DNA of 64,000 bases, from NCBI GenBank assembly GCA_020445605.1, contig JAGRGH010000054.1, forward strand, positions 18,705-82,704. Reading direction: 5' to 3'. The notes beneath the pieces are model-generated. The model saw only the letters and a program-made list of their open reading frames with translations. It made no database searches and was not told where the DNA came from. Shown here piece by piece: positions 3,874 to 63,969 of this stretch (the first letter of the stretch is position 1; every line of letters starts with the position of its first letter). Source of the stretch: Chromatiales bacterium (lineage in GTDB: Bacteria > Pseudomonadota > Gammaproteobacteria > JAGRGH01). Made by a program: the position numbers and the translations under genes.

Positions 3874-4620
3874 TCAGCCAGCGGACGGGGCGAGCCGCAG
3901 ACCATGACTCGCCGTGGCCGGTTCCAGCAGCTGGATGAACGCCGGTGCGATCATGGCGGGGTCGGTCGTCGCGTCGGCTGGCTCGGCCGGGAACGCCTGC
4001 AGGCGCAGGCGCGTGCGCATCGGCGGCGGCACGACGGCCGCCACGCGCACCGGCGTGTCGTTCATTTCATCGGTCAGCACCTCGCGCAGGGCGATGCGAC
4101 CGGCGTTCGCTGCGGCGTAGGCGCCCCAGTACGCGCGGTGCGTGCGCGCCGGCTCGTCCTCGGTGAACACGATCGTGGCCGTATCGCGTTCGAGCAGCAG
4201 TGGCAGGCAGGCACGCACGAGCAGAAATTCCGCGGTCAGATTCAGCTGAACGGTGCGTTCCCACACGCCCGCATCGAAATGCCGCACTGGCGAGAGCATG
4301 CCGAGTTGGGCGGCACACAGCACCAGCCCGTCGAGGCGGCCGATCTGCTCGCGCACGACGGCGGCGGCACGTTCGAAATCCGCTTCGGTGGCGGTGGCCA
4401 GATCCAGCGGCAGCAATGCCGGTTCGGCGCCGTTGCCAGCCGTGATTGCGTCGTAGGTGTCTTCGAGCTTGCGCAGCACCCGCCCGACCAGGACCACGGT
4501 GGCGCCATGCGCGGCGCAGGCCAGTGCCACGGCGCGGCCGAGGCCGTCACCGGCGCCGGTGACCAGAATCGTCTGGCCGGTCAGCACATCGGCCCGTGGC
4601 TGCGAATCGTTGGTGTTCAT
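3874..4620 (-). CDS. Short-chain dehydrogenase/reductase (YciK-like SDR)
   Basis: ILVTGAGDGLGRAVALACAAHGATVVLVGR Rossmann TGxxxGxG motif and SDR architecture. The start overlaps the rmuC stop by 4 nt. Confidence 0.75.
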   Translation of the reverse strand: MNTNDSQPRADVLTGQTILVTGAGDGLGRAVALACAAHGATVVLVGRVLRKLEDTYDAITAGNGAEPALLPLDLATATEADFERAAAVVREQIGRLDGLVLCAAQLGMLSPVRHFDAGVWERTVQLNLTAEFLLVRACLPLLLERDTATIVFTEDEPARTHRAYWGAYAAANAGRIALREVLTDEMNDTPVRVAAVVPPPMRTRLRLQAFPAEPADATTDPAMIAPAFIQLLEPATASHGLRLAPSAG

Positions 4621-5963
4621 TCGCCGTCGGCCTCGGAACCGTCGGCGGGCAGCGGGGCATCGGCAGCGGTTTCCCCACCCGGATCCAGGGTGCGCGTGCG
4701 CGCATCGATCGGCTCGGGTTCCTCGAGTTCGCGCGTCGCCTGGATGCCCATCTCCGGAAAGCGCCGCAGGCTCGGCAATACCTGCCGGTTCAGCGAACCG
4801 ACCGCACGGTTGAACTGTTCGACCGAGCCGTTGAGGCTCTTGCCGAGACGACCGAGATGTTCGGTCAGGGTCGCCACGCGCTTGTAGAGTTCCTGGCCCA
4901 GATCGCGGATCTGTTCGGCGTTTTCACTGATGGCCTGCTGCTGCCAGCCGTAGGCGATCGCGCGCAGCAGCCCGATCAGGCTGGTCGGTGTGGCGAGCAC
5001 GACGCGCTGCGCCATCGCGTCCTCGAGCAGGCTCGCGTCATGATCCAGCGCTGCGCTCAGGAACTGGTCGCCGGGCACGAACAGCACGACGAATTCCGGC
5101 GAGCGCTCGAACTGCGCCCAGTAACTCTTGGCGGCCAGTTCGCGCACCCGCGCGCGCATGCCGCGGGCATGCCGGGTAAGGTGCTGGGCCGTCTCTTCCG
5201 GCGGCGACTCGATCGCACTCAGATACGCGTCCAGCGGCGTTTTCGCGTCGACGATGACTTCGCGTCGGTTCGGTAGCCGGACGATCATGTCCGGACGGGA
5301 CTGTCGGCCGTCGACGTTGGCAGTTTCCTGTTCCACGAAGTCACAGTGCTGCACCATGCCAGCGAGCTCGACTAGGCGTTTGAGCGTCAGCTCGCCCCAG
5401 CGCCCGCGCACCTCCGGCCGGCGCAGTGCCTGCACGAGATTGCGGGTCTCGCTCTGCAGCTCGCGCTGGGTTTCGGCCATCGCGCTCAAGTGCTGCGTCA
5501 CCGCGCCGTAGGCCTGCTGGCGGGCGTTCTCGATGCGCGCGAGTTCGCGCTCGGTCTTCGAGAGCGCCTCGGCGACCGGCTTCACCAGTCCCTGCAGGGC
5601 CTGGTCACGACGCTCGAAGTCGGACTTCGCACGGGCCTGGATCTGTTCGAAGCGCTCGCCGGCCAGTTGCAGGAACAGTTCGTTGTTGACCTTCAGCGCA
5701 CTGGAGGAGAGCTGCGCAAAGGCGCGCGCCAGATCCTCGCGGGTACCGCGCAACAGCGCCATTTTCTGCTGCTCGGCCTGTTCCTCGGCGGCGAGTCGCG
5801 CCTCGAGCGCGCGCTTTTCCTCGCCCAGCGCACGCAGCTCGCGCGACATGCGTTCGATGCGCCGCTGCTCGAAGATGAACACGGCCAGCGCGCCGACCAG
5901 AAGCGCGATGACCACGGCCATCCAGAAGCTCAGCAGATCGGGCTGCCAGGTCTCTACACCCAT
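4617..5963 (-). CDS. rmuC: DNA recombination protein RmuC
   Basis: 448 aa with N-terminal TM segment, long coiled-coil, and conserved RmuC C-terminal region (FVVLFVPGDQFLSAALDHD...). Follows gph/ubiG as in many gammaproteobacteria. Confidence 0.85.
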   Translation of the reverse strand: MGVETWQPDLLSFWMAVVIALLVGALAVFIFEQRRIERMSRELRALGEEKRALEARLAAEEQAEQQKMALLRGTREDLARAFAQLSSSALKVNNELFLQLAGERFEQIQARAKSDFERRDQALQGLVKPVAEALSKTERELARIENARQQAYGAVTQHLSAMAETQRELQSETRNLVQALRRPEVRGRWGELTLKRLVELAGMVQHCDFVEQETANVDGRQSRPDMIVRLPNRREVIVDAKTPLDAYLSAIESPPEETAQHLTRHARGMRARVRELAAKSYWAQFERSPEFVVLFVPGDQFLSAALDHDASLLEDAMAQRVVLATPTSLIGLLRAIAYGWQQQAISENAEQIRDLGQELYKRVATLTEHLGRLGKSLNGSVEQFNRAVGSLNRQVLPSLRRFPEMGIQATRELEEPEPIDARTRTLDPGGETAADAPLPADGSEADGE

Positions 5964-17322: not shown

Positions 17323-18906
17323 ATGAGCACTGCGACTGCAACGCACGACGACGCGCATCATGATCACGGCCCGGCCTCGGGGCTGTGGCGCTGGGTCACG
17401 ACGACCAACCACAAGGACATCGGTACGCTGTACCTGATCTTCGCCATGGTGATGTTCTTCATCGGTGGCGCGATGGCGATGGTGATCCGCGCCGAGCTGT
17501 TCCAGCCCGGACTGCAGGTCGTCGATCCGCATTTCTTCAACCAGATGACCACGCTGCATGCGCTGGTCATGATCTTCGGCGTGGTCATGCCGGGTTTCAC
17601 CGGGCTTGCCAACTGGCAGATTCCGATGATGATCGGCGCGCCGGACATGGCGCTGCCGCGCATGAACAACTGGAGCTTCTGGCTGCTGCCGTTTGCGTTC
17701 AGCCTGCTGCTGCTGACGCTGTTCATGAATGGCGGTGGGCCGGCTGCCGGCTGGACTATGTACCCGCCGCTGGTGCTGCAGGGTGGTGACGGATTCCCCT
17801 TCATGGTGTTCGCGATTCACCTGGCCGGCATGTCGTCGATTATGGGTGCGATCAACATCATCGTCACGATCCTGAACATGCGCGCGCCCGGCATGTCGCT
17901 GATGAAGATGCCGCTTTTCGTCTGGGCCTGGCTGATTACCGCCTACCTGCTGATCGCGGTGATGCCGGTACTGGCCGGTGCCGTGACGATGCTCCTGACC
18001 GACCGCTTCTTCGAGACCAGCTTCTTCACGGCCGGCGGTGGCGGTGACCCGGTGATGTTCCAGCACATCTTCTGGTTCTTCGGGCATCCCGAGGTCTACA
18101 TCCTGATTCTGCCGGCGTTCGGCGTGGTCTCGCAGATCATCCCGACGTTCGCGCGCAAGACGCTGTTCGGCTACAGCTCCATGGTCTACGCCATGGCATC
18201 GATCGCGTTCCTGTCGTTCATCGTCTGGGCGCACCACATGTTCACGGTCGGCATGCCGCTGATCGGCGAGCTGTTCTTCATGTATGCGACGGTGCTGATC
18301 GCCGTGCCGACCGGTGTGAAGGTGTTCAACTGGGTCGCGACCATGTGGAAAGGCGCGATGACCTTCGAGACCCCGATGCTGTTCGCGCTCGGTTTCGTGG
18401 TGCTGTTCACGATCGGCGGTTTCTCCGGGCTCATGCTCGGCGTGGCGCCGGTGGACTTCCAGTACCACGACACCTATTTCGTCGTGGCTCACTTCCACTA
18501 TGTGCTGGTGTCCGGCGCCATCTTCTCTCTCATCGCCGCGACGTATTACTGGCTGCCGAAGTGGACCGGCAACATGTACGACGAAAAGCTCGGCAAGATC
18601 CACTTCTGGTTGTCGATGATTTCAATGAACGTGCTGTTCTTCCCGCAGCACTTCCTTGGTCTCGCCGGCATGCCGCGCCGCATTCCGGACTATGCCGTGC
18701 AGTTCACCGAGTGGAACGTGATCTCGTCGATCGGTGGTTTCGCCTTCGGTCTCAGCCAGCTGCTGTTCCTTTGGATCGTCATCAAGGCGATCCGCGGCGG
18801 TACGAAAGCGACCGGCCAGGTCTGGGATGGGGCGCATGGTCTGGAGTGGACGCTCCCGTCGCCGCCGCCCTACCACAGCTTCACGGAAGCCCCCGAGGTC
18901 AAGTAA
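17323..18906 (+). CDS. coxA: Cytochrome c oxidase subunit I
   Basis: WVTTTNHKDIGTLYLIFA..., 12-TM haem-copper oxidase signature, HPEVYILILP. ATG at 17323 preceded by GGAGAA. Confidence 0.95.
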   Translation: MSTATATHDDAHHDHGPASGLWRWVTTTNHKDIGTLYLIFAMVMFFIGGAMAMVIRAELFQPGLQVVDPHFFNQMTTLHALVMIFGVVMPGFTGLANWQIPMMIGAPDMALPRMNNWSFWLLPFAFSLLLLTLFMNGGGPAAGWTMYPPLVLQGGDGFPFMVFAIHLAGMSSIMGAINIIVTILNMRAPGMSLMKMPLFVWAWLITAYLLIAVMPVLAGAVTMLLTDRFFETSFFTAGGGGDPVMFQHIFWFFGHPEVYILILPAFGVVSQIIPTFARKTLFGYSSMVYAMASIAFLSFIVWAHHMFTVGMPLIGELFFMYATVLIAVPTGVKVFNWVATMWKGAMTFETPMLFALGFVVLFTIGGFSGLMLGVAPVDFQYHDTYFVVAHFHYVLVSGAIFSLIAATYYWLPKWTGNMYDEKLGKIHFWLSMISMNVLFFPQHFLGLAGMPRRIPDYAVQFTEWNVISSIGGFAFGLSQLLFLWIVIKAIRGGTKATGQVWDGAHGLEWTLPSPPPYHSFTEAPEVK

Positions 18907-43849: not shown

Positions 43850-44482
43850 TCATTCTTGAACTGGAATCCTTCCGAGCACTTCAATCTCGCCGTCGTCAAG
43901 GATCTTGCCGACCAGCAGCTCGCCGATGCCGATCAGCTCCAGCGTCAGCGCATCGATGTTCGGGCGATGATTCACGAAGACGATTGGCGACGTTCCGCGA
44001 TGCTTCGCGAGCAGGGCGCCTGCCGCAGCCAGGAATGCTTCCTGCCCCGTGGTGTCCTCGACCGGCCGTTGTCGCAGGTCCGGATCGGCGATGAACTTCC
44101 CGAATGCGATCTGCGCGGTCTGTGTACAGCGGCACATGGGCGAGCTGATCACGACCGGGTTGATATCGTGTGCCGAGAATGCCGCGCCAACCGCGCGTGC
44201 CTGGGCGCGGCCTTCCTCCGTCAGGATGCTTTCGCCCACACAGTTGCCGCTTGAATCCCACACCAGCATGTTCGTGCCGTCGCGGTTTCCGCCGGATTCC
44301 GCGTTGCGCATCAAAACGACCATGTTCGGGTCGTGGCGCAGTTTCTCCCAGAGACCAACGTCTGCTGTTGCGGTTGATGACAGCAGCACGAGCACGATCA
44401 TCCAGTTCAGTGTAGCTGTTGATTCGCGCCGCTGGGGTGAGCAATCGATCTGCCCGAACCGGCCGCATGGCAGCCGTGCCAT
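43850..44482 (-). CDS. Histidine-phosphatase-superfamily (phosphoglycerate-mutase-like) protein with RHG changed to RNA; probable signal peptide
   Basis: VVLMRNAESGGN aligns to the branch-1 RHGES motif with Asn (AAC) in place of the phospho-acceptor His. VISSPMCRCTQTAQIA and VNHRPNI match the family. An internal Met at 44404 would start with a signal-peptide-like MIVLVLLSSTATA. Confidence 0.55.
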   Translation of the reverse strand: MARLPCGRFGQIDCSPQRRESTATLNWMIVLVLLSSTATADVGLWEKLRHDPNMVVLMRNAESGGNRDGTNMLVWDSSGNCVGESILTEEGRAQARAVGAAFSAHDINPVVISSPMCRCTQTAQIAFGKFIADPDLRQRPVEDTTGQEAFLAAAGALLAKHRGTSPIVFVNHRPNIDALTLELIGIGELLVGKILDDGEIEVLGRIPVQE

Positions 44483-44486
44483 CGGC

Positions 44487-45119
44487 TTAGCAGGTGTGTT
44501 GGGGCTTGTTTCGCGTCAGGCCCATCCCGGCGAGTCCGAGGCCGAACAATGCCAGGATGCCGGGTTCAGGGACTGCGACGCGGACCAGCCAGTTACCCCA
44601 GGCCGCATTGGTCCAGTCGGATGCGTCCGAATTGAGGATGACGCGGGATCTGTCCGAATTCGAGCCAGGGGGCGCGGTGTAGAAGCTATACCGCAGGGTG
44701 GCGCCACCAACGCCGTCCAGTGCATTGCCATCATCAAACAGCCCCTGGGCGGAGAAGGTTCCGCCATCTGCGATGGACTGGGAAAATGTCCGCCCCAGCA
44801 GATCGATCAACGACAGCATCGGCGCCGAGGCCGCGCCGTCATACGGGGGGGCGAAGCCTGCGTTGGTGAACAGCGTGGTGACTTCCGAGATCGTCGCATG
44901 GCGCCACCCCTGGAAATCGCCACCGACACCAAAATGACTGGAAACATCGTCGAAAGAACGGCCCTGTGAGCTCGTAAGATCCAACCACAGAAGGTTCTGA
45001 TCTGTATCGGTCGTGGTCATGCCGTTGTCGATCAGGACCGCAGATGCGGGGCTCGCCAGCAGGCCAATTGCGGCGAACGTCAGGCAGCGGGCCGTGGTAA
45101 GCGCTCTGATTTTCGTCAT
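44487..45119 (-). CDS. Secreted DUF1566 (Lcl C-terminal-like) domain protein with PEP-CTERM sorting signal
   Basis: Signal peptide MTKIRALTTARCLTFAAIGLLASPASA. LIDNGMTTTDTDQNLLWL...GGDFQGWRHATISEVTTLF (DUF1566 pattern). C-terminal VPEPGILALFGLGLAGMGLTRNK is canonical PEP-CTERM (PEP + TM + basic tail). Confidence 0.75.
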   Translation of the reverse strand: MTKIRALTTARCLTFAAIGLLASPASAVLIDNGMTTTDTDQNLLWLDLTSSQGRSFDDVSSHFGVGGDFQGWRHATISEVTTLFTNAGFAPPYDGAASAPMLSLIDLLGRTFSQSIADGGTFSAQGLFDDGNALDGVGGATLRYSFYTAPPGSNSDRSRVILNSDASDWTNAAWGNWLVRVAVPEPGILALFGLGLAGMGLTRNKPQHTC

Positions 45120-45195
45120 GATTCGGTCACCCTCATGAAGTGTCAGCAGGTCCGGCGCAGCGCCAGACGCAACACGACCCTAACATGATCGGACT

Positions 45196-47241
45196 TCAGT
45201 CGTCCTGGCGCGGGCGGTGCGCGGCGGTCAGCGACTGCTGCACCTTCGGCGGTGCCGGTTCGTAGCGTGCGAACTGCATGGTGTAGGCGCCGGCGCCGGC
45301 CGTGAGTGAACGCAGGCGCGTTGCGTAGTCGTCGAGTTCGGCCAGCGGTGCCTCCGCCGTAATGGTCAGCGTGCCGTCGTCGGACGCATCCGTGCCAAGA
45401 ATGCGCGCACGGCGCGAGGCCAGATCGCCGCTGATGTCGCCGATGGAGGCCGCGGGTGCGCGCACCTGCAGGGCTGCAATCGGTTCAAGCACGATCGCCC
45501 CGGCGTTGCCGACCGCATCGATGAATGCCTTGCGTCCGGCCGTCACGAACGCGACTTCCTTCGAATCCACCGAATGGGTCTTGCCATCCGTGACGGTCAC
45601 GCGCACGTCCACGACCGGAAAGCCCGCGATCGCGCCGCCTTCGATGACCTGCCGCACGCCTTTTTCGACGGCCAGGATCAGCGACGCCGGGATCGCGCCG
45701 CCCGTGACCCTGTCGACGAATTCGAATCCCGCACCGCGTTCCAGCGGCTCGACTTCGAGCATCACCTCGCCGAACTGACCGGCCCCGCCGGTCTGCTTCT
45801 TGTGCCGGTGATGGCCGGATGCCGAGCGCGTAATCGTCTCGCGATACGGCACGCTCGGTGGCCGTGTGGCGACGCGCACGTGATAGCGGTCGTCCATCTT
45901 CTCGAGCGCGACGCGCAGGTGATATTCGCCGAGCCCGCGCAGCACGGTCTCGTTGGCCGAGATGTCGTGCTCGATGCTCAGGCACGGGTCCTCGGCGACG
46001 ATGCGGTGCAGAACGTCTGAAACCTTCTGTTCGTCACCGTGGCTCTCGGGCGTCAGCGCCAGCCTGACCACGGGCGCGGGCAGGTCCCAAGGCTCCGCAT
46101 GCAGGTCATCGAACTCGTGCGTGCCGTGCAGGATCGCGTCCAGGTGCAGGTCGTCGACCTTGGCCACGGCACAGATCGCGCCGGGACCTGCGCGTGGAAT
46201 CTCCAGGTGTTCCTTGCCGTGCATGCGAAACAGATGACCGACCTTGAACGAATGGTTGCCGTCGTCGATCAGCAGCGTGTCGCCCCGACTGATCACACCT
46301 TGGTGCACGCGCAGGGTGCCGAGCTTGCCCAGGAACGGGTCGTAGTCGATCTTGAACACATGCGCGAGCACGGGCCGGTCGGCGTTCGGGCGCGCGAGCA
46401 GGCGTTTGGCCTTGTCGCCGTGGCCGGCGATGAAGAAATGCGGCGTGCCCTCGAGCGGGTTCGGCGCGAGTCGTTCGACGACATCGAGCAGTTCCGCGAT
46501 GCCGGCGCTGCTGCGCGTCGACGTGAAACACACGGGGATCAGGTGCCCCTCTCGTAGCGCCTGCTCGAACGGGTCGTGCAGGGTCGCGGGGTCCACGTCG
46601 CCTTCTTCCAGATAGCGCTCGGTCAGTGCATCGTCGACCTCTACGACCTGTTCCATCAGCGCCTGGTGCGCCTCGGCGACCGAAGAGAAATCCGCCTGCC
46701 CAGCGGCATGGTCGAAGCAGTCGACCACCCGGCTTGCCCCGCCGGCCGGCAGGTTCACCGGCAGCACCTCGGGACCGAAGGCCTCACGCAGCTCGGCGAT
46801 GCGCGCGGCCAGCTCGCCTTCGCCGGCGGCGTCGATCTTGCTGATGACGATCATCGCGGCCATGCCGTGCGCGCGGAGCTGTTCCATGACACGGCGGGTG
46901 ACCGGCTCGATTCCGGCGGTGGCGCTGACGACCAGCACGGCGCATTCGACGGCGGGCAGGGCGCTCAGGCTGCGGCCGATCAGGTCCGGGTCGCCGGGGG
47001 TGTCGAGGATGTTCACGCGCACCCCGGCGTGGCTGAAGCCGAGGATCGTGGTGTTCAGCGAGTGGTGATGGCGCTGTTCGAGCGGGTCGAAGTCCGACAC
47101 CGTCGTGCCGCGCTCGATCGAGCCCGGCTCGTTCAGCACGCCCGCCGCGACCAGCAGCGCCTCGGCCAGCGAGGTCTTGCCGCAGGCGGCGTGGCCGACC
47201 AGGGCCAGGTTGCGTCGCTGTTCGAGTCGGGTATCGGCCAT
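45196..47241 (-). CDS. Elongation factor G paralog (EF-G-like translational GTPase, divergent G1 motif)
   Basis: 681 aa with five EF-G domains. G1 is VGHAACGKTS instead of AHIDAGKTT; DTPGDPD (G3), SKID (G4). Confidence 0.85.
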   Translation of the reverse strand: MADTRLEQRRNLALVGHAACGKTSLAEALLVAAGVLNEPGSIERGTTVSDFDPLEQRHHHSLNTTILGFSHAGVRVNILDTPGDPDLIGRSLSALPAVECAVLVVSATAGIEPVTRRVMEQLRAHGMAAMIVISKIDAAGEGELAARIAELREAFGPEVLPVNLPAGGASRVVDCFDHAAGQADFSSVAEAHQALMEQVVEVDDALTERYLEEGDVDPATLHDPFEQALREGHLIPVCFTSTRSSAGIAELLDVVERLAPNPLEGTPHFFIAGHGDKAKRLLARPNADRPVLAHVFKIDYDPFLGKLGTLRVHQGVISRGDTLLIDDGNHSFKVGHLFRMHGKEHLEIPRAGPGAICAVAKVDDLHLDAILHGTHEFDDLHAEPWDLPAPVVRLALTPESHGDEQKVSDVLHRIVAEDPCLSIEHDISANETVLRGLGEYHLRVALEKMDDRYHVRVATRPPSVPYRETITRSASGHHRHKKQTGGAGQFGEVMLEVEPLERGAGFEFVDRVTGGAIPASLILAVEKGVRQVIEGGAIAGFPVVDVRVTVTDGKTHSVDSKEVAFVTAGRKAFIDAVGNAGAIVLEPIAALQVRAPAASIGDISGDLASRRARILGTDASDDGTLTITAEAPLAELDDYATRLRSLTAGAGAYTMQFARYEPAPPKVQQSLTAAHRPRQDD

Positions 47242-47367
47242 TGGAGGGAAGTCTAGCCGATTGCGGTTGGCGGCAACGCGTCCCCCTCCGCCGCCACGCT
47301 TGCCGCCGGGCCGGTTACGGCCTCAGACTTCCGCTTCAATAACAATTCAGCGATTCGGGGAACGTCC

Positions 47368-48066
47368 ATGAGAGCATTACCGCTGCAACGCGGAGCGGCT
47401 ATTGGCCTGCTGATCCTTGCGCTGTCCGCCACACCCGCCCGGGCGACTTTGATCGACAACCTCGACGGTACGGTGTTGGACGACGTAAGTGGATTGGTTT
47501 GGACGAAGAACGCGAATCTCGCGGCGAGCAACACCTTCGGTGTGGGCGGCATCGCTGCTACCGGGAGGATGACCTGGGACACCGCCCAGGCGTGGATCGC
47601 GGCGATGAACGCGGCGAACTATCTGGGCTTCAACGACTGGCGACTGCATACGATCACCGACACCGGCGCGCCGGGCTGTGACTTTGCCTTCACGGGTACG
47701 GATTGCGGCTACAACGTGGATCTGGGCACGGGAGAACTCGCGGACCTGTGGTACCGGGCCCTGGGTAACATCCCTTACTACGACACCAGCGGTAACGGAC
47801 CCCAGGCCGGCTGGGGCCTGACCAACACCGGCCCGTTCGACAATATGCAGTCCGACTACTATTGGTCGGGTACCGAGTACGCACCCAGTACCGTTAACGC
47901 GTGGACCTTCCACACGGACCGCGGCTACCAGGACCTCAACCTTAAGACCAATCTCTTCTATGGTTGGGCGGTTCGTACCGGCAATGCCGGCGTACCGCTG
48001 CCGGGAACGGCACTGCTGCTGGGGCTGGGGTTGCTCGGCCTGACGGCACGTCGCCGTCTTGCGTGA
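47368..48066 (+). CDS. Secreted DUF1566 domain protein with PEP-CTERM-like C-terminus (VPLP variant)
   Basis: Signal peptide. LIDNLDGTVLDDVSGLVWTKNA...FNDWRLHTI...YYWSGTEYAPSTVNAWTFHTDRGYQD...YGWAVR (strong DUF1566 pattern). C-terminal GVPLPGTALLLGLGLLGLTARRRLA. Confidence 0.7.
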   Translation: MRALPLQRGAAIGLLILALSATPARATLIDNLDGTVLDDVSGLVWTKNANLAASNTFGVGGIAATGRMTWDTAQAWIAAMNAANYLGFNDWRLHTITDTGAPGCDFAFTGTDCGYNVDLGTGELADLWYRALGNIPYYDTSGNGPQAGWGLTNTGPFDNMQSDYYWSGTEYAPSTVNAWTFHTDRGYQDLNLKTNLFYGWAVRTGNAGVPLPGTALLLGLGLLGLTARRRLA

Positions 48067-48076
48067 CCCCGGCGCC

Positions 48077-48345
48077 GTAGGGTGCGTACCACGCACCATT
48101 TTCGGCGCATGATCACTCCATACGGTGCGCCGTGCGCACCCTACTCACACCGCACATGTAGGGTGCGTACCACGCACCGCATACGGCATTTCAGACTTCC
48201 GGTGCGCCGTGCGCACGCTGCCCACACCGCACATGTAGGGTGCGTACCACGCACCATATCCGGCGCGTGATGATTCGACTCGGTGCGCCGTGCGCACCCT
48301 ACTCACTGGCGGCTGGCTCCGCTGCGCCGTTCGCACCCTGCCCAC
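48077..48345. repeat. Three and a partial fourth tandem copies of an ~80-bp REP-like element, each with imperfect inverted repeats
   Basis: gtagggtgcgtaccacgcacc at 48077, 48158 and 48235. Its imperfect reverse complement cggtgcgccgtgcgcaccctac(tcac) at 48123, 48200 and 48281, with a degenerate copy at 48319. Period 77-81 bp. Intergenic between the PEP-CTERM gene and cinA. Confidence 0.7.
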
Positions 48346-48508
48346 AGTGCACACCTGCGCAATGCGCGCCGTTTGCGCGGCGCCTGGCCGGCGGGTCGGA
48401 ATACTCGGACACGACTCCGTCAAATCAGCCGACAAGCGGTCCGTGCCGGCCTGCTAGACTTCCGGCGGTGCGATTTGCAGTCTGGCCCCGCTGCCCCCGG
48501 AGCGTGTC

Positions 48509-48994
48509 TTGAGCGACCTTCTCAACCTGCTGGTGAGTTTCGCCGGAGAGCGGCTGGTCGCGCGCGGCTGGAAGCTGGCCGTGGCCGAATCCTGCACCGG
48601 CGGGTGGATCGGCAAGGCCATCACGGATGTCTCGGGCTCCTCGGCCTGGTTCGAGCGCGGCTTCGTGGTCTACAGCAATCAGGCGAAGGTCGACCTGCTC
48701 GGGGTGAAGCCGGCGACGCTGGAGGCCTATGGCGCCGTCAGCGAGCCCACCGCCCGCGAGATGGCGGACGGCGCGCTGGCGCGCTCGCGCGCGCAACTCG
48801 CCGTGGCGGTCACCGGCATTGCCGGCCCGGACGGCGGCAGCCGCGAGAAGCCCGTCGGCACGGTGTTTCTGGCCTGGGCCGCGCGCGACGAGGAGACCCG
48901 CGTGCAGCGCATGCGCTTTCTCGGCGATCGTGCCGAGGTGCGGCTGCAATCGGTGCAATCCGCGCTGCAGGGGGTCGTGGACCTGCTGTCCTGA
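48509..48994 (+). CDS. CinA C-terminal-domain protein (PncC-like NMN deamidase)
   Basis: [39 protein letters not shown]...[12 protein letters not shown]: CinA_C signature. Short form upstream of recA, as in Pseudomonas. TTG start. Confidence 0.8.
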
Positions 48995-49042
48995 TCCGGC
49001 CCGCGGCCGGCCGTCCTGCCGCCGTTGCGTCGCGACGCCCGG

Positions 49043-49062
49043 TTACTGTATGTTTAACCAGT
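49043..49062 (+). promoter_or_regulatory. Putative LexA (SOS) box upstream of recA
   Basis: TACTGTATGTTTAACCAGTA is a palindromic CTGT-N8-CCAG, one mismatch from the gammaproteobacterial CTGT-N8-ACAG consensus. It lies 58-77 nt upstream of the recA ATG. Confidence 0.55.
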
Positions 49063-49119
49063 ATCGGCCTGCGAGCGAACGGGCCACCCGAAAACAAGCT
49101 GCCAAAGAGAGTTTCAACG

Positions 49120-50160
<1,041 letters not shown>

Positions 50161-62884: not shown

Positions 62885-63865
62885 ATGCAGATCAAGGCCA
62901 TTCGCATGCACGCCCACGGCGGACCAGAGGTACTGCGCTGGGAAGAGGTCGAACTCGTCGAGCCTGGCCCGGGCAGCGTGCGGGTGCGTCACCATGCGGT
63001 GGGCCTGAACTACATCGACGTCTATCACCGCACGGGGCAGTACCCGACGCCGTCTCTGCCCTGCACGATCGGGATGGAGGCCGCCGGGGTCGTCGAGGCC
63101 CTCGGGGATGGTGTCGGCACGCTCGCCGTGGGCGATCGTGTGGCCTACGCCACACCGCCGCTCGGTGCCTATGCCGAGGCGCGCAATCTGGCCGCGGACC
63201 GGCTCGTGAGACTGCCCGATTGCATATCGTTCGAAACGGGCGCGGCCATGATGCTCCAGGGCATGACGGTGGAATATCTGCTGCGCCGAACGTATCCGTT
63301 GCAGGCCGGGCAGACCGTACTGTTCCATGCCGCGGCCGGCGGCGTGGGTCTGATCTTCTGTCAGTGGGCGCGACAGATCGGCGCGACGGTGATCGGCACG
63401 GTCGGCAGCGCGCAGAAGGCCGACCTCGCGCGGGCGCATGGTTGTACGCACACCATTCTCTATCGCGAAGAGAACGTGGTGGAGCGCGTACGCGAATTGA
63501 CCGGTGGCAAGGGTGTCGACGTGGTCTACGACGGTGTCGGCAAGGATACCTGGATCACCTCGCTCGACAGCCTGCGCGTGCGCGGGATGATGGTGAGTTT
63601 CGGTAGTTCCTCGGGCAAGGTGCCGCCGCTGGAACTGGCCGACCTCACCTCGCGCGGCTCGCTGTACCTGACCCGCCCGACCCTGATGACCTATACCGCG
63701 GCGCCGGATGAGTTGCAGGCCAGCGCGGCCGCGCTGTTCGGCATGGTCGATCGTGGCATCGTTTCCATTCCGGTGAACCAGCGTTATCCTCTGGCGCAGG
63801 CCTCCGACGCCCACCGGGCGCTGGAGGCGCGCGAGACCGTTGGTTCCAGCGTGCTGGTGGTCTGA
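62885..63865 (+). CDS. qor: NADPH:quinone oxidoreductase (zinc-independent MDR family)
   Basis: MQIKAIRMHAHGGPEVLRWEEVE..., GxGxxG-like AAGGVGL, and size (326 aa) typical of Qor. Confidence 0.85.
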   Translation: MQIKAIRMHAHGGPEVLRWEEVELVEPGPGSVRVRHHAVGLNYIDVYHRTGQYPTPSLPCTIGMEAAGVVEALGDGVGTLAVGDRVAYATPPLGAYAEARNLAADRLVRLPDCISFETGAAMMLQGMTVEYLLRRTYPLQAGQTVLFHAAAGGVGLIFCQWARQIGATVIGTVGSAQKADLARAHGCTHTILYREENVVERVRELTGGKGVDVVYDGVGKDTWITSLDSLRVRGMMVSFGSSSGKVPPLELADLTSRGSLYLTRPTLMTYTAAPDELQASAAALFGMVDRGIVSIPVNQRYPLAQASDAHRALEARETVGSSVLVV

Positions 63866-63872
63866 GATCGAG

Positions 63873-63935
63873 AGCAGCCAGCAGCCAGCAGCCAGCAGCC
63901 AGCGGCCAGCAGCCAGCAGCCAGCAGCCAGCAGCG
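63873..63935. repeat. Heptanucleotide tandem repeat (AGCAGCC)x9 with two single-base variants
   Basis: 4x agcagcc, 1x agcggcc, 3x agcagcc, 1x agcagcg, read directly from the sequence. Lies between the qor stop (63865) and the next ATG (63970). Confidence 0.85.
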
Positions 63936-63969
63936 AGCCTAAGGTAAACCAGACTCTGGGGGAGGACCC

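Follow-up and report, generated by a model that had tools for sequence, protein, structure and literature searches.

GTAG-tagged repeats in known systems

The REPs of E. coli come as y and z types arranged in BIMEs, among them the BIME-2 arrays (PMC3333891, PMC3479197), and the array described here shares much of their design: a GTAG tag lies 5' of the hairpin, each pair joins two REP subtypes in inverted orientation, the pairs stand in tandem within an intergenic gap, the inverted copy carries CC/TAC (slash, cut site), the motif cut by the E. coli enzyme, and in related loci RAYT genes lie between inverted REPs. The REP itself is of another build: it is 21 nt long, its 7-bp stem is perfect and its loop has 3 nt, unlike the 29–37-nt imperfect palindrome with an AA/GC bulge of E. 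coli. In Pseudomonas fluorescens SBW25 and its relatives, REPINs occur singly, as doublets or in clusters and go with RAYTs, of which a genome usually has one copy; there, as here, two inverted REPs and a short spacer form one long hairpin (PMC3116915, PMC3337134). Unlike the SBW25 REPINs, the present pairs are heterodimeric, the spacers at the two loci of the source genome are unrelated, and the exact pair is without a match in the JGI collection. The locus combines the alternating REP subtypes and short, reiterated linkers of a BIME with the inverted doublet of a REPIN that folds into one long hairpin.

In the GTAG superfamily (Di Nocera et al. 2013, PMC3733652), GTAG abuts a 6–9-bp stem that begins GGTG and is closed by a short loop; many elements form heterodimers, chiefly of the 'HH' type with the tags outside, and most lie between same-direction or convergent ORFs, in hosts from the Proteobacteria, Cyanobacteria and Planctomycetes. 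Where dimers cluster in this superfamily, they are repeated in tandem and bring stretches of flanking DNA with them (PMC3733652; also PMC2817692), and a Haemophilus REP, GTAGGGTGGGCTTYAGCCCACC, is given in Table 1 of Nunvar et al. 2010 (PMC2817692). The present array shares the organization of the superfamily and of Haemophilus, namely an abutting GTAG, a GGTG stem, heterodimers, tags outside and same-direction ORFs. Its stem/loop sequence, GGTGCGY-NNN-RCGCACC, is absent from the searchable text and supplements of PMC3733652 and PMC2817692, although the element may yet be one of the 24 named families of PMC3733652. A literature search for the REP sequence returned unrelated primer matches only, none in a repeat context. 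The REP-Sm element of Stenotrophomonas maltophilia, part of a 'group 3' REPtron (PMC8266576), is likewise a short perfect palindrome with a 3-nt interruption and GTAG directly before it; unlike that group, the RAYTs found beside the present REP end in a G-E/D motif that may be 'group 2'-like.

Anatomy of the Chromatiales array

Seven copies of a 21-nt GTAG-tagged hairpin element (REP), five intact and two decayed, occupy positions 48077–48341 of the window, by which we mean the whole 64-kb stretch of DNA analysed (Table 1). They make up three inverted pairs and one orphan, in the orientation pattern + − + − + − −, and every + copy is of subtype 1 and every − copy of subtype 2. We are confident, short of certainty, that the GTAG-type REPs of this region form a BIME/REPIN-like cluster; their host, an uncultured gammaproteobacterium of the Chromatiales, thereby joins the bacteria that carry such repeats. 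Since this repeat stands beside its own domesticated transposase in other bacteria (see below), the feature is genuine and of a well-known, ordinary kind. It leaves current understanding unchallenged.

The sequence GTAGGGTGCGTACCACGCACC is present as exact + strand copies at 48077, 48158 and 48235; its near reverse complement, at 48124–48144 and 48282–48302, reads GTAGGGTGCGCACGGCGCACC on the − strand, and decayed − strand copies lie at 48201–48221 (GCAGCG...) and 48321–48341 (GCAGGGTGCGAACGGCGCAGC). The tag is GTAG in five of the seven copies and GCAG in the two decayed ones. The spacers within pairs A, B and C are 26, 22 and 26 nt long, a 13-nt linker, TCACACCGCACAT, is present twice between pairs, and the pairs start at periods of 81 and 77 bp. 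The right part of the pair B spacer, AGACTTCCGG, is found again at 48456–48465, upstream of cinA.

Table 1. REP copies, spacers, linkers and neighbouring genes, in window coordinates
Feature	Position	Strand	Evidence or remark
Upstream gene, Lcl_C-domain protein with PEP-CTERM sorting signal	47368..48066	+	Pfam PF07603 4e-18, PF07589; called in metagenome assemblies
Whole array, blocks (A B)(C D'), inter-block period 158 bp	48077..48353		Repeat family and AB-vs-CD alignment
REP copy A+, subtype 1, GTAG + GGTGCGT/ACC/ACGCACC hairpin	48077..48097	+	Exact match; 35.0 bits, E = 3e-5 (covariance model)
Pair A spacer, 26 nt, GTAG tags outward	48098..48123		About two-thirds identity with pair C spacer
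REP copy A−, subtype 2, GTAG + GGTGCGC/ACG/GCGCACC hairpin	48124..48144	−	35.2 bits
13-nt linker TCACACCGCACAT, pairs A to B, GTAG tags inward	48145..48157		Recurs at 48222–48234 minus first base
REP copy B+, subtype 1	48158..48178	+	Exact match; covariance model 35.0 bits
Pair B spacer, 22 nt	48179..48200		Unrelated to pair A and pair C spacers
REP copy B−, decayed subtype 2, tag GCAG, first stem base lost	48201..48221	−	2 mismatches; 27.7 bits, E = 1e-3
Second 13-nt linker copy, CCACACCGCACAT	48222..48234		Sequence comparison
REP copy C+, subtype 1	48235..48255	+	Exact match; covariance model 35.0 bits
Pair C spacer, 26 nt	48256..48281		Sequence comparison with pair A
REP copy C−, subtype 2	48282..48302	−	Covariance model 35.2 bits
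REP copy D−, decayed orphan, GCAGGGTGCGAACGGCGCAGC	48321..48341	−	2 mismatches; 24.3 bits, E = 6e-3
cinA, PncC-type CinA domain only	48509..48994	+	Pfam PF02464 8e-58
recA, 346-aa gene call	49120..50160	+	Pfam PF00154 1e-144; ORF scan start 49114, metagenome gene calls start 49120

The 21-mer matched the window five times against 0 expected from 100 dinucleotide shuffles, and a loop-free pattern nine times against 0.09 expected. A covariance model of the element recovered exactly the seven sites in the window (E from 3e-5 to 6e-3), the best other match outside shadows of the array having E = 0.18, and neither exact, mismatch nor covariance model scans gave a further REP copy elsewhere in the 64 kb; a generic scan of the window for GTAG plus a perfect hairpin gave no additional element. 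An Rfam scan of 47000–49500 at E ≤ 1 gave no match, as expected, because REPs are not curated in Rfam. The element can be searched for either with the covariance model (R1) or with the pattern GTAGGGTGCG-N5-CGCACC at two or fewer mismatches, and R1, being compact and supported by covariation, is suited to counting elements in complete genomes and to tracing the cognate RAYT there.

Every 21-mer forms a hairpin of its own, in which GTAG precedes a stem of 7 perfect base pairs and a loop of 3 nt, and folds as DNA at −7.9 kcal/mol (subtype 1) or −8.7 kcal/mol (subtype 2), values that none of 200 shuffles equalled; the hairpin of the decayed copy B− is no better than shuffles. The subtypes differ by a compensatory change from T-A to C-G at the top of the stem and by one loop base. 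Over 70 distinct variants, 93% of the stem cells are paired and compensatory changes occur at four of the seven stem pairs (24 cells); the observed covariation score was matched by 0 of 500 shuffles, and slid controls brought pairing down to 18–64%. This stem covariation supports the hairpin. In the tag, G1 and A3 are conserved in at least 90% of the same variants, G4 is invariant and T2 exceeds 70%. At the next level, the pairs are heterodimers of the two subtypes in inverted orientation, REPIN-like hairpins of 64–68 nt: the three pairs of the array fold as long interrupted hairpins at −31.6 to −35.3 kcal/mol and a pair at a second locus (below) at −36.0 kcal/mol, with z from −2.9 to −5.6 for these four, and the 301-nt region folds at −144.5 kcal/mol (z = −4.5).

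A sequence-only reading of this stretch had described three full units of ~80 bp and a degenerate fourth, each unit with internal inverted repeats, and had called them REP-like. The sequence is as described there, and the GTAG-tagged hairpins in inverted pairs bear out the name; the elementary REP is the 21-nt hairpin, not the ~80-bp unit. The placement between a PEP-CTERM gene and cinA-recA in that reading agrees with the Pfam matches: the array lies inside a 442-base gap between the PEP-CTERM surface-protein gene and cinA-recA, in the 3' flank of the Lcl_C/PEP-CTERM gene, where copy A+ begins 10 nt past the TGA stop. The cinA product has an exact protein match, 'CinA family protein [Chromatiales bacterium]'. 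Spurious ORFs had also been noted there, and three cover the array (48082–48270 and 48240–48512 on the + strand, 48145–48435 on the − strand), while the metagenome assemblies call no gene across it. The array explains the 442-nt gap and the spurious ORFs and is a likely cause of assembly trouble, so that its main value is for annotation: genes should not be called across it. One further suggestion, which placed the edge of an accessory block at the array, found no support, as there is no step in GC or skew at the array and no close relative to define such a block.

All six metagenome copies of the locus have an identical 442-nt gap, and no ongoing copy-number change is therefore visible. The nearest CinA relative is 65% identical and has a different synteny (mutS, TPR gene, cinA, recA, recX, alaS); its cinA-recA region contains no REPs and no such array.

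Dispersal of the repeat and its RAYT neighbours

The contig carries another pair of this family ~5.6 kb to the left of the window (17802–17866 of the locus designated L130), where the neighbouring genes on either side encode a PabC-like aminotransferase (Pfam Aminotran_4) and an MltG/YceG-family protein (Pfam YceG). Its copies score 36.1 and 30.4 bits with the covariance model, it has different spacer and loop variants, and its spacer is unrelated to those of the array. Both source loci are extragenic, each between called same-direction genes, and together they hold nine copies in ~83 kb of source sequence, a modest density. Because of this second pair we regard the family as dispersed rather than as a one-off duplication. 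L130 also contains two chance-like GTAG hairpins that are not members of the REP family, and one metagenome annotation calls a 51-aa ORF across its REP locus.

Among the matches listed, 66 other assemblies carry the identical 21-mer, in at least 120 stretches with 267 copies; none of these stretches is from the source genome, and the sole similarity is a recA homologue. By record titles, these matches cover six to seven phyla (Pseudomonadota, 'Deltaproteobacteria'/Thermodesulfobacteriota, Planctomycetota, Poribacteria, Cyanobacteriota and Acidobacteriota), with up to 12 separate 8-kb stretches per genome among those listed. Neighbouring copies elsewhere are mostly pairs with GTAG tags outward and spacers of 22–29 nt, single copies and same-orientation pairs are common in other loci, and a stem variant, GGTGGGC...GCCCACC, accounts for nine copies among the fetched loci. 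In viral contigs the 21-mer was seen in only 10 stretches among 2.9 million contigs. The exact pair, searched as subtype 1/N10–40/subtype 2, had no match in the JGI metagenome collection, which is also without this locus; because even this locus has no match there, we take the organism to be absent from that collection. That null result and the unrelated spacers at the two source loci leave no evidence for the whole pair as a replicating unit. The sequence-only reading had favoured a dispersed family and had named uniqueness to this locus as the finding that would speak for local duplication; the second pair and the copies in other assemblies settle this in favour of dispersal.

That reading had also raised a link with REP-associated transposases, which our data bear out in other genomes and not in the window, where tblastn found no RAYT gene (the flanks of the source contig were scanned for REPs alone). 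RAYT genes adjoin the same REP at five loci (L021, L032, L073, L082 and L091), all with matches to NCBIfam NF047646, "REP-associated tyrosine transposase", of 171–195 bits against a cutoff of 80; their identity is backed by BLAST, by Pfam Y1_Tnp and by conserved HUH and Tyr motifs. In L082 the gene occupies 4106–4681, and in L032 280–828. At the four loci with both flanks readable, a + copy lies to the left of the RAYT and a − copy to the right, while L091 starts at the RAYT gene and has the REP on its one readable (right) flank. These RAYTs are 43–63% identical to each other, no closer than to the E. coli enzyme. Their terminal G-E/D motif aligns with what we take to be G160-E161 of that 'group 2' enzyme, an alignment that serves only as a lead. 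The REP that belongs with the E. coli enzyme has a sequence quite different from this 21-mer.

By analogy with E. coli work (PMC3333891, PMC3479197, PMC8266576), a RAYT/TnpA-REP, a Y1 HUH enzyme, would use the GTAG tag and the stem to bind a REP folded on single-stranded DNA and would cut at C/T, including the CC/TAC of the inverted copy; such cutting would seed and amplify clusters of this kind. It is possible, although we think it rather unlikely, that GTAG-GGTGCGY-NNN-RCGCACC is one near-invariant REP lineage common to at least six phyla and accompanied by divergent RAYTs. Either REPtrons may move between phyla, or enzyme recognition may have frozen the DNA sequence for a very long time while the protein drifted; on this view the Chromatiales array would be the product of a recent amplification of heterodimers in that cross-phylum lineage. 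The identity of the REP across wide taxa beside divergent RAYTs offers a small testable point for REP-RAYT co-evolution.

Role, rival explanations and growth of the array

Should transcripts of the PEP-CTERM gene carry the array as their 3' tail, it might act as a series of stable stem-loops that shield the mRNA from 3' exonucleases and damp read-through into cinA, a role that we put forward tentatively, at somewhat under an even chance. REPs of E. coli affect mRNA stability, and it is from work on that species that the stabilising or insulating roles named in the sequence-only reading would derive. A scan of 47000–49300 gave no intrinsic terminator or sigma-70-like promoter, two terminator-like sites lying elsewhere on the − strand; the array itself was considered as an intrinsic terminator (GC-rich hairpin plus U tract) and rejected, there being no terminator-like site in 48067–48508. 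We also considered whether G-U pairs favour the fold of the sense transcript and rejected this, as antisense folds of the array are as stable or more so. With sense and antisense RNA of about equal folding stability, neither strand stands out as a candidate for an RNA role.

That equal stability of both strands agrees with the chief alternative, in which the REPs are real but without any role in expression, being commensal or selfish DNA tolerated in a permissive gap, where RAYT action and slippage would have produced the array in passing. Decay has reached two of the seven copies (GTAG to GCAG, stem mismatches), one partner REP has been deleted, and the nearest relative has cinA-recA without the array, all of which suits such a history. 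Against it, the upstream gene has no other terminator-like structure, the first hairpin begins 14 nt past its stop codon, and REPs are known to influence mRNA stability in E. coli. We regard an array without a role as a serious possibility, yet one well below an even chance.

An operator array, attenuator or leader RNA dedicated to cinA-recA is very improbable. In its favour, the array precedes cinA-recA on the coding strand and has a strong fold, but the same element stands between the PabC-like and MltG/YceG genes of the source genome and at unrelated loci in many phyla, its last REP ends 167 nt short of cinA, the nearest relative lacks it, and no Rfam family matches it. Moreover, recA appears to have its own LexA-type box, a candidate site separate from the array, in front of recA and further downstream.

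We give very little credence to the view that the array arose wholly by tandem duplication of a local palindromic segment of ~80 bp, with no tie to a dispersed family. The 64-kb window has no other copy, and there are signs of block duplication, with 12 of the 13 nt of the linker repeated; but the second pair outside the window, with its own spacer and loop variants, refutes local duplication as a complete explanation, and the copies in the 66 other assemblies, with RAYT genes flanked, also weigh against it. Local duplication survives only as the last step of expansion. The choice put by the sequence-only reading, dispersed REP or local duplication, thus dissolves: both are true at different levels, the last expansion being local and the family dispersed.

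A classical MITE array, in which a DDE transposase moves non-autonomous elements bounded by terminal inverted repeats, deserves just as little credence. The pairs of 64–68 bp with 21-bp inverted ends and no coding capacity resemble one, but neither source locus has a target-site duplication or direct repeat (flanks GGCGCC/GTAG...CTAC/TCACTG and CCAGCG/GTAG...CTAC/CCGGCG, slashes marking the element ends), each 'terminal repeat' is a GTAG-tagged hairpin with a covarying stem, single copies and same-orientation pairs are common elsewhere, and the gene adjoining the repeat encodes a Y1 HUH enzyme rather than a DDE transposase. A degenerate CRISPR-like array or attC cassette site, suggested by short palindromic repeats at regular spacing, can be set aside as next to impossible, since there is no Rfam match at E ≤ 1 and the anatomy excludes it, with alternating orientation and gaps of 13 and 22–26 nt that are partly repeated.

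For the BIME/REPIN-like cluster, the latest growth can be read from internal alignments. The array contains a repeat family of 72 nt at 89% identity with a spacing of 158, copy D− aligns with copy B− and the trailing CCCACA..GCACA, and the pair A and pair C spacers are related, a kinship that would reflect local duplication only. To judge from these alignments, the array grew partly by duplication of a 158-bp two-pair block, and the + partner of orphan D− was deleted. In the last growth step that block would have been duplicated; one REP would then have been lost, and two GTAG tags would have decayed to GCAG.

Anatomy of the array and of its hairpins

The upstream PEP-CTERM gene ends at 48066 with a TGA stop codon, cinA starts at 48509, and the 442-nt gap that separates them contains copies of a 21-mer in two versions, subtypes 1 and 2 (table). 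Comparing pattern matches in the window with those in shuffled sequence, five were found against 0 expected, and nine against 0.09 expected. Plus-strand copies are subtype 1 in every case and minus-strand copies subtype 2 in every case, and together they form three heterodimers (pairs A, B and C, left to right) with GTAG tags outward and spacers of 26, 22 and 26 nt, connected by a 13-nt linker (TCACACCGCACAT / CCACACCGCACAT) and followed, 18 nt beyond the third heterodimer, by an orphan minus copy (D-). The intact inverted copies have CCCTAC; the two decayed ones have GCTGC and CCTGC. The sequence-only reading had described tandem units of about 80 bp with internal inverted repeats and a degenerate fourth unit, and the pattern searches and array periods (81 and 77 bp) agree with it in all particulars; the ~80-bp repeat is real, but the elementary unit is smaller, each 21-mer being already a hairpin.

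Features of the array, its neighbourhood and related stretches (window coordinates unless an L-number, a DNA stretch fetched from outside the window, is given)
Feature	Position	Strand	Remarks
REP GTAGGGTGCGTACCACGCACC (A+, B+, C+)	48077, 48158, 48235	+	subtype 1
REP GTAGGGTGCGCACGGCGCACC (A-, C-)	48124-48144, 48282-48302	-	subtype 2, close variant
REP GCAGCGTGCGCACGGCGCACC (B-)	48201-48221	-	decayed
REP GCAGGGTGCGAACGGCGCAGC (D-)	48321-48341	-	decayed, orphan
AGACTTCCGG then GGTGCG	48456-48472		as right part of spacer B; a little upstream of cinA
CGGCCTGCTAGACTTCCGGCGGTGCG	48447-48472		similar to unit B at 48184-48208 (spacer and iREP start)
Second REP pair	L130 17802-17866		in the left flank, ~5.6 kb before window position 1 on the source contig
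51-aa ORF	L130 17738-17893		called across second REP pair
PEP-CTERM-tagged protein	44487-45119	-	within 43850-48066
EF-G paralogue	45196-47241	-	within 43850-48066
PEP-CTERM-tagged protein	47368-48066	+	within 43850-48066
LexA-like box CTGTATGTTTAACCAG	49046-49061		59 nt upstream of recA start (49120), after cinA
AGCAGCC heptamer tract	63873-63938		9.4 tandem copies, 94% matches
Zinc-type alcohol dehydrogenase gene	62885-63865		
Palindrome GTAGGGTGCGCACGGCGCACCCTAC	L018 886-910, L020 409-433, L043 1952-1976, L094 2054-2078, L106 884-908		perfect, 25 nt

In each 21-mer, GTAG stands before a perfect 7-bp stem that closes a 3-nt loop: GGTGCGT / ACC / ACGCACC in subtype 1 (DNA fold -7.9 kcal/mol) and GGTGCGC / ACG / GCGCACC in subtype 2 (-8.7 kcal/mol). 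What separates the two is one loop base and, at the stem top, a compensatory T-A to C-G change. Folded as RNA, each outward pair gives one long interrupted hairpin (-31.6 to -35.3 kcal/mol), as do the inward-facing pairs (-31.2 and -38.9 kcal/mol), and the entire 301 nt folds at -144.5 kcal/mol (z = -4.5). Across 70 distinct variants of the 21-mer, 93% of stem cells were paired and four of the seven stem pairs showed compensatory double changes, in a set where six of the seven pairs lie at specified pattern positions, the seventh is restricted to Y/R, and variation is held to two mismatches or fewer. Examples are C-G to G-C (GGTGGGC...GCCCACC), C-G to T-A (GGTGTGC...GCACACC), T-A to C-G, and G-C to A-T. 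None of 500 shuffles reached the observed covariation, and slid-register controls lowered pairing to 18-64%. Stem pairing, compensatory changes and both controls thus argue, from sequence variation, that the REP hairpin is under selection.

Growth of the array and dispersal in the source genome

Alignment of 48077-48234 with 48235-48365 shows pair C to be copied from pair A, with 89% identity over 72 nt that include the spacers; B- and the CCCACACCGCACA that trails it correspond to orphan D- and its trailing CCCACAGTGCACA. The fourth unit lacks about 38 nt, a plus-strand REP among them. These block matches point to duplication of a 158-bp two-pair block, then deletion, as the final growth step. 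Two tags would have decayed from GTAG to GCAG since that duplication. The spacer-like sequence before cinA may be flanking DNA copied into the array, or an eighth, nearly erased REP 23-40 nt before that gene.

Seven sites in the window, and no eighth, were recovered by pattern searches and by a covariance model of the 70 variants (E 3e-5 to 6e-3); outside the array's shadows, the model's best further match there had only E = 0.18. Metagenome contigs of the same organism, reached via the exact CinA protein, provided six copies of the locus, the 442-nt gap being identical in all. The source sequence was also extended by 10 kb per side via the proteins at the window ends. No REP of the array's family occurred in the right flank, while the left flank contained a second pair. 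It consists of GTAGGGTGCACATCGCGCACC, a 23-nt spacer and GTAGGGTGCGCACTGCGCACC in reverse complement, and the genes on either side of it encode a PabC-like aminotransferase (Pfam Aminotran_4) and an MltG/YceG-family protein (Pfam YceG). This pair scored 30.4 and 36.1 bits with the covariance model and folds at -36.0 kcal/mol; the ORF called across it in the metagenome annotation has no Pfam match and is evidently spurious, produced by the repeat. With its nine copies shared between two loci in about 83 kb, this is a dispersed family in the source genome. The second pair refutes the idea that the element might be unique to this locus and purely a local duplication.

The same REP and adjoining RAYT genes in other genomes

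A scan of 185,579 species genomes for GTAGGGTGCGYACSRCGCACC, a pattern matching both subtypes, returned at least 120 stretches from at least 66 assemblies; the source genome was not among the 120 matches listed. By record title the hosts include Beta- and Gammaproteobacteria (Alysiella, Kingella, Haliea, Microbulbifer, Methylobacter, Competibacteraceae and Achromatium, among others), 'Deltaproteobacteria' / Desulfobacterota, Planctomycetota, Poribacteria, Cyanobacteria (Microcoleus, Microcystis) and, among the matches listed, one Acidobacteriota MAG. Within the 120 stretches listed were at least 267 copies in 67 variants (at two mismatches or fewer), among them GTAGGGTGCGCACCGCGCACC (106 copies) and the window's subtypes 1 (23) and 2 (17). 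Adjacent copies in these stretches had tags outward in 46 cases (spacer mode 22-29 nt), versus 18 inward and 21 in direct orientation. Five stretches contain a perfect palindrome (table) that places a GTAG tag on both strands of one hairpin, and the exact 21-mer occurs in ten contigs of the IMG/VR viral collection (L135-L144), twice in one.

REP-associated tyrosine transposases (RAYTs, TnpA-REP) were sought by tblastn and blastp, with a query taken to be the E. coli RAYT and serving as a lead only. This search found no homologue in the 64-kb window, and among the stretches listed it found homologues adjoining REPs in at least five (L021, L032, L073, L082 and L091). All five score 171-195 bits (cutoff 80) with NCBIfam NF047646, "REP-associated tyrosine transposase", and have the catalytic-Tyr motif YIHYNPVKHG as well as an HUH motif; four of them pass the Pfam Y1_Tnp threshold. 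Irrespective of gene orientation, a plus copy lies left of the RAYT gene and a minus copy right of it in L021, L032, L073 and L082 (in L082, four plus copies on one side and five minus copies on the other); L091 begins at the RAYT gene, so that only its right flank is readable, and a minus copy is there. Such flanking is the published REPtron arrangement (PMC2817692, PMC3333891, PMC3733652). The RAYTs that accompany the identical 21-mer across several phyla share only 43-63% identity, the sole point that we rate as unusual, and mildly so. As a lead only, their C-termini carry a G-E/D motif aligning with G160-E161 of the E. coli enzyme, a 'group 2' trait, versus the published tie of perfect short palindromes to 'group 3' enzymes; the L032 protein is 52% identical to the E. 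coli protein versus 42-45% to the other RAYTs sharing its REP.

The analysis shows GTAG-tagged hairpins with covarying stems, heterodimers in inverted arrangement and their reiteration in tandem, dispersal over two loci in the source sequence and, in other genomes, neighbouring RAYT genes. Everything matches the GTAG-REP superfamily with BIME/REPIN organisation. The nearest published sequence found is the Haemophilus REP GTAGGGTGGGCTTYAGCCCACC (PMC2817692, Table 1), whose corresponding stem variant also occurs among the fetched loci; the exact stem and loop were not found in searchable literature text, as distinct from the figure that lists the 24 GTAG families. The array is a further member of a known superfamily, not a new kind of element. 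A classical MITE is unlikely, the "terminal repeats" being tagged hairpins, the loci showing no target duplications and the associated enzyme being a Y1 HUH protein. The copies alternate in orientation and the gaps are short and themselves repeated, which excludes a CRISPR-like array.

Putative function and setting of the locus

No terminator-like site was found for the upstream gene and no sigma-70-like promoter in the 442-nt gap, which suggests that the array is probably transcribed as the 3' tail of that gene. The first stem starts 14 nt past the upstream stop codon, a distance within the range at which stems in E. coli reportedly disturb the termination of translation. By a tentative analogy with E. 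coli REPs, the array might, in such a 3' tail, block exonucleases and partly damp read-through. On function only, the serious rival is that the cluster is neutral passenger DNA; its sense and antisense strands fold with equal stability, which leaves the sequence without a strand-specific hint of an RNA role. A dedicated cinA-recA regulator, as its position might suggest, is unlikely, since the same element is present at unrelated loci and a LexA-type box lies separately before recA. That box is one base off CTGT-N8-ACAG; LexA-like matches window-wide are at chance (13 found, 13.5 expected), and this one is favoured only by its position and AT-rich core.

The E. coli TnpA-REP binds folded REP on single-stranded DNA only, requires the GTAG tag and cuts between C and T (C^T), notably in the inverted copy's CC^TAC and at linker sites, and its strand exchange has led to models of BIME excision, insertion and unit-by-unit amplification (PMC3333891, PMC3479197, PMC8266576). 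By analogy with that biochemistry, the array would have spread and amplified via RAYT binding and C^T cutting, and the two decayed copies would no longer be binding sites on the opposite strand. The long hairpin of a heterodimer has three mismatches, which come from its two different subtypes; such mismatches have been proposed to protect these palindromes against SbcCD-type removal (PMC3733652).

NCBI lists the CinA protein as "CinA family protein [Chromatiales bacterium]", and identity drops to only 65% with the next best CinA; the locus of that relative (L133) has no REP and the order mutS, TPR gene, cinA, recA, recX, alaS, which is common in Gammaproteobacteria. In the source, cinA-recA is without these mutS and recX-alaS neighbours, being preceded by an EF-G paralogue that lies between two PEP-CTERM genes and followed by gluconate-dehydrogenase-like genes. 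The suggestion that the array marks the boundary of an accessory block gained no support, no compositional step being found at the array, though it is not strictly refuted. Near the window's right end, the AGCAGCC tract, in a gap of about 104 nt between the alcohol dehydrogenase gene and a rhodanese gene starting just past the window, is possibly slippage-prone.
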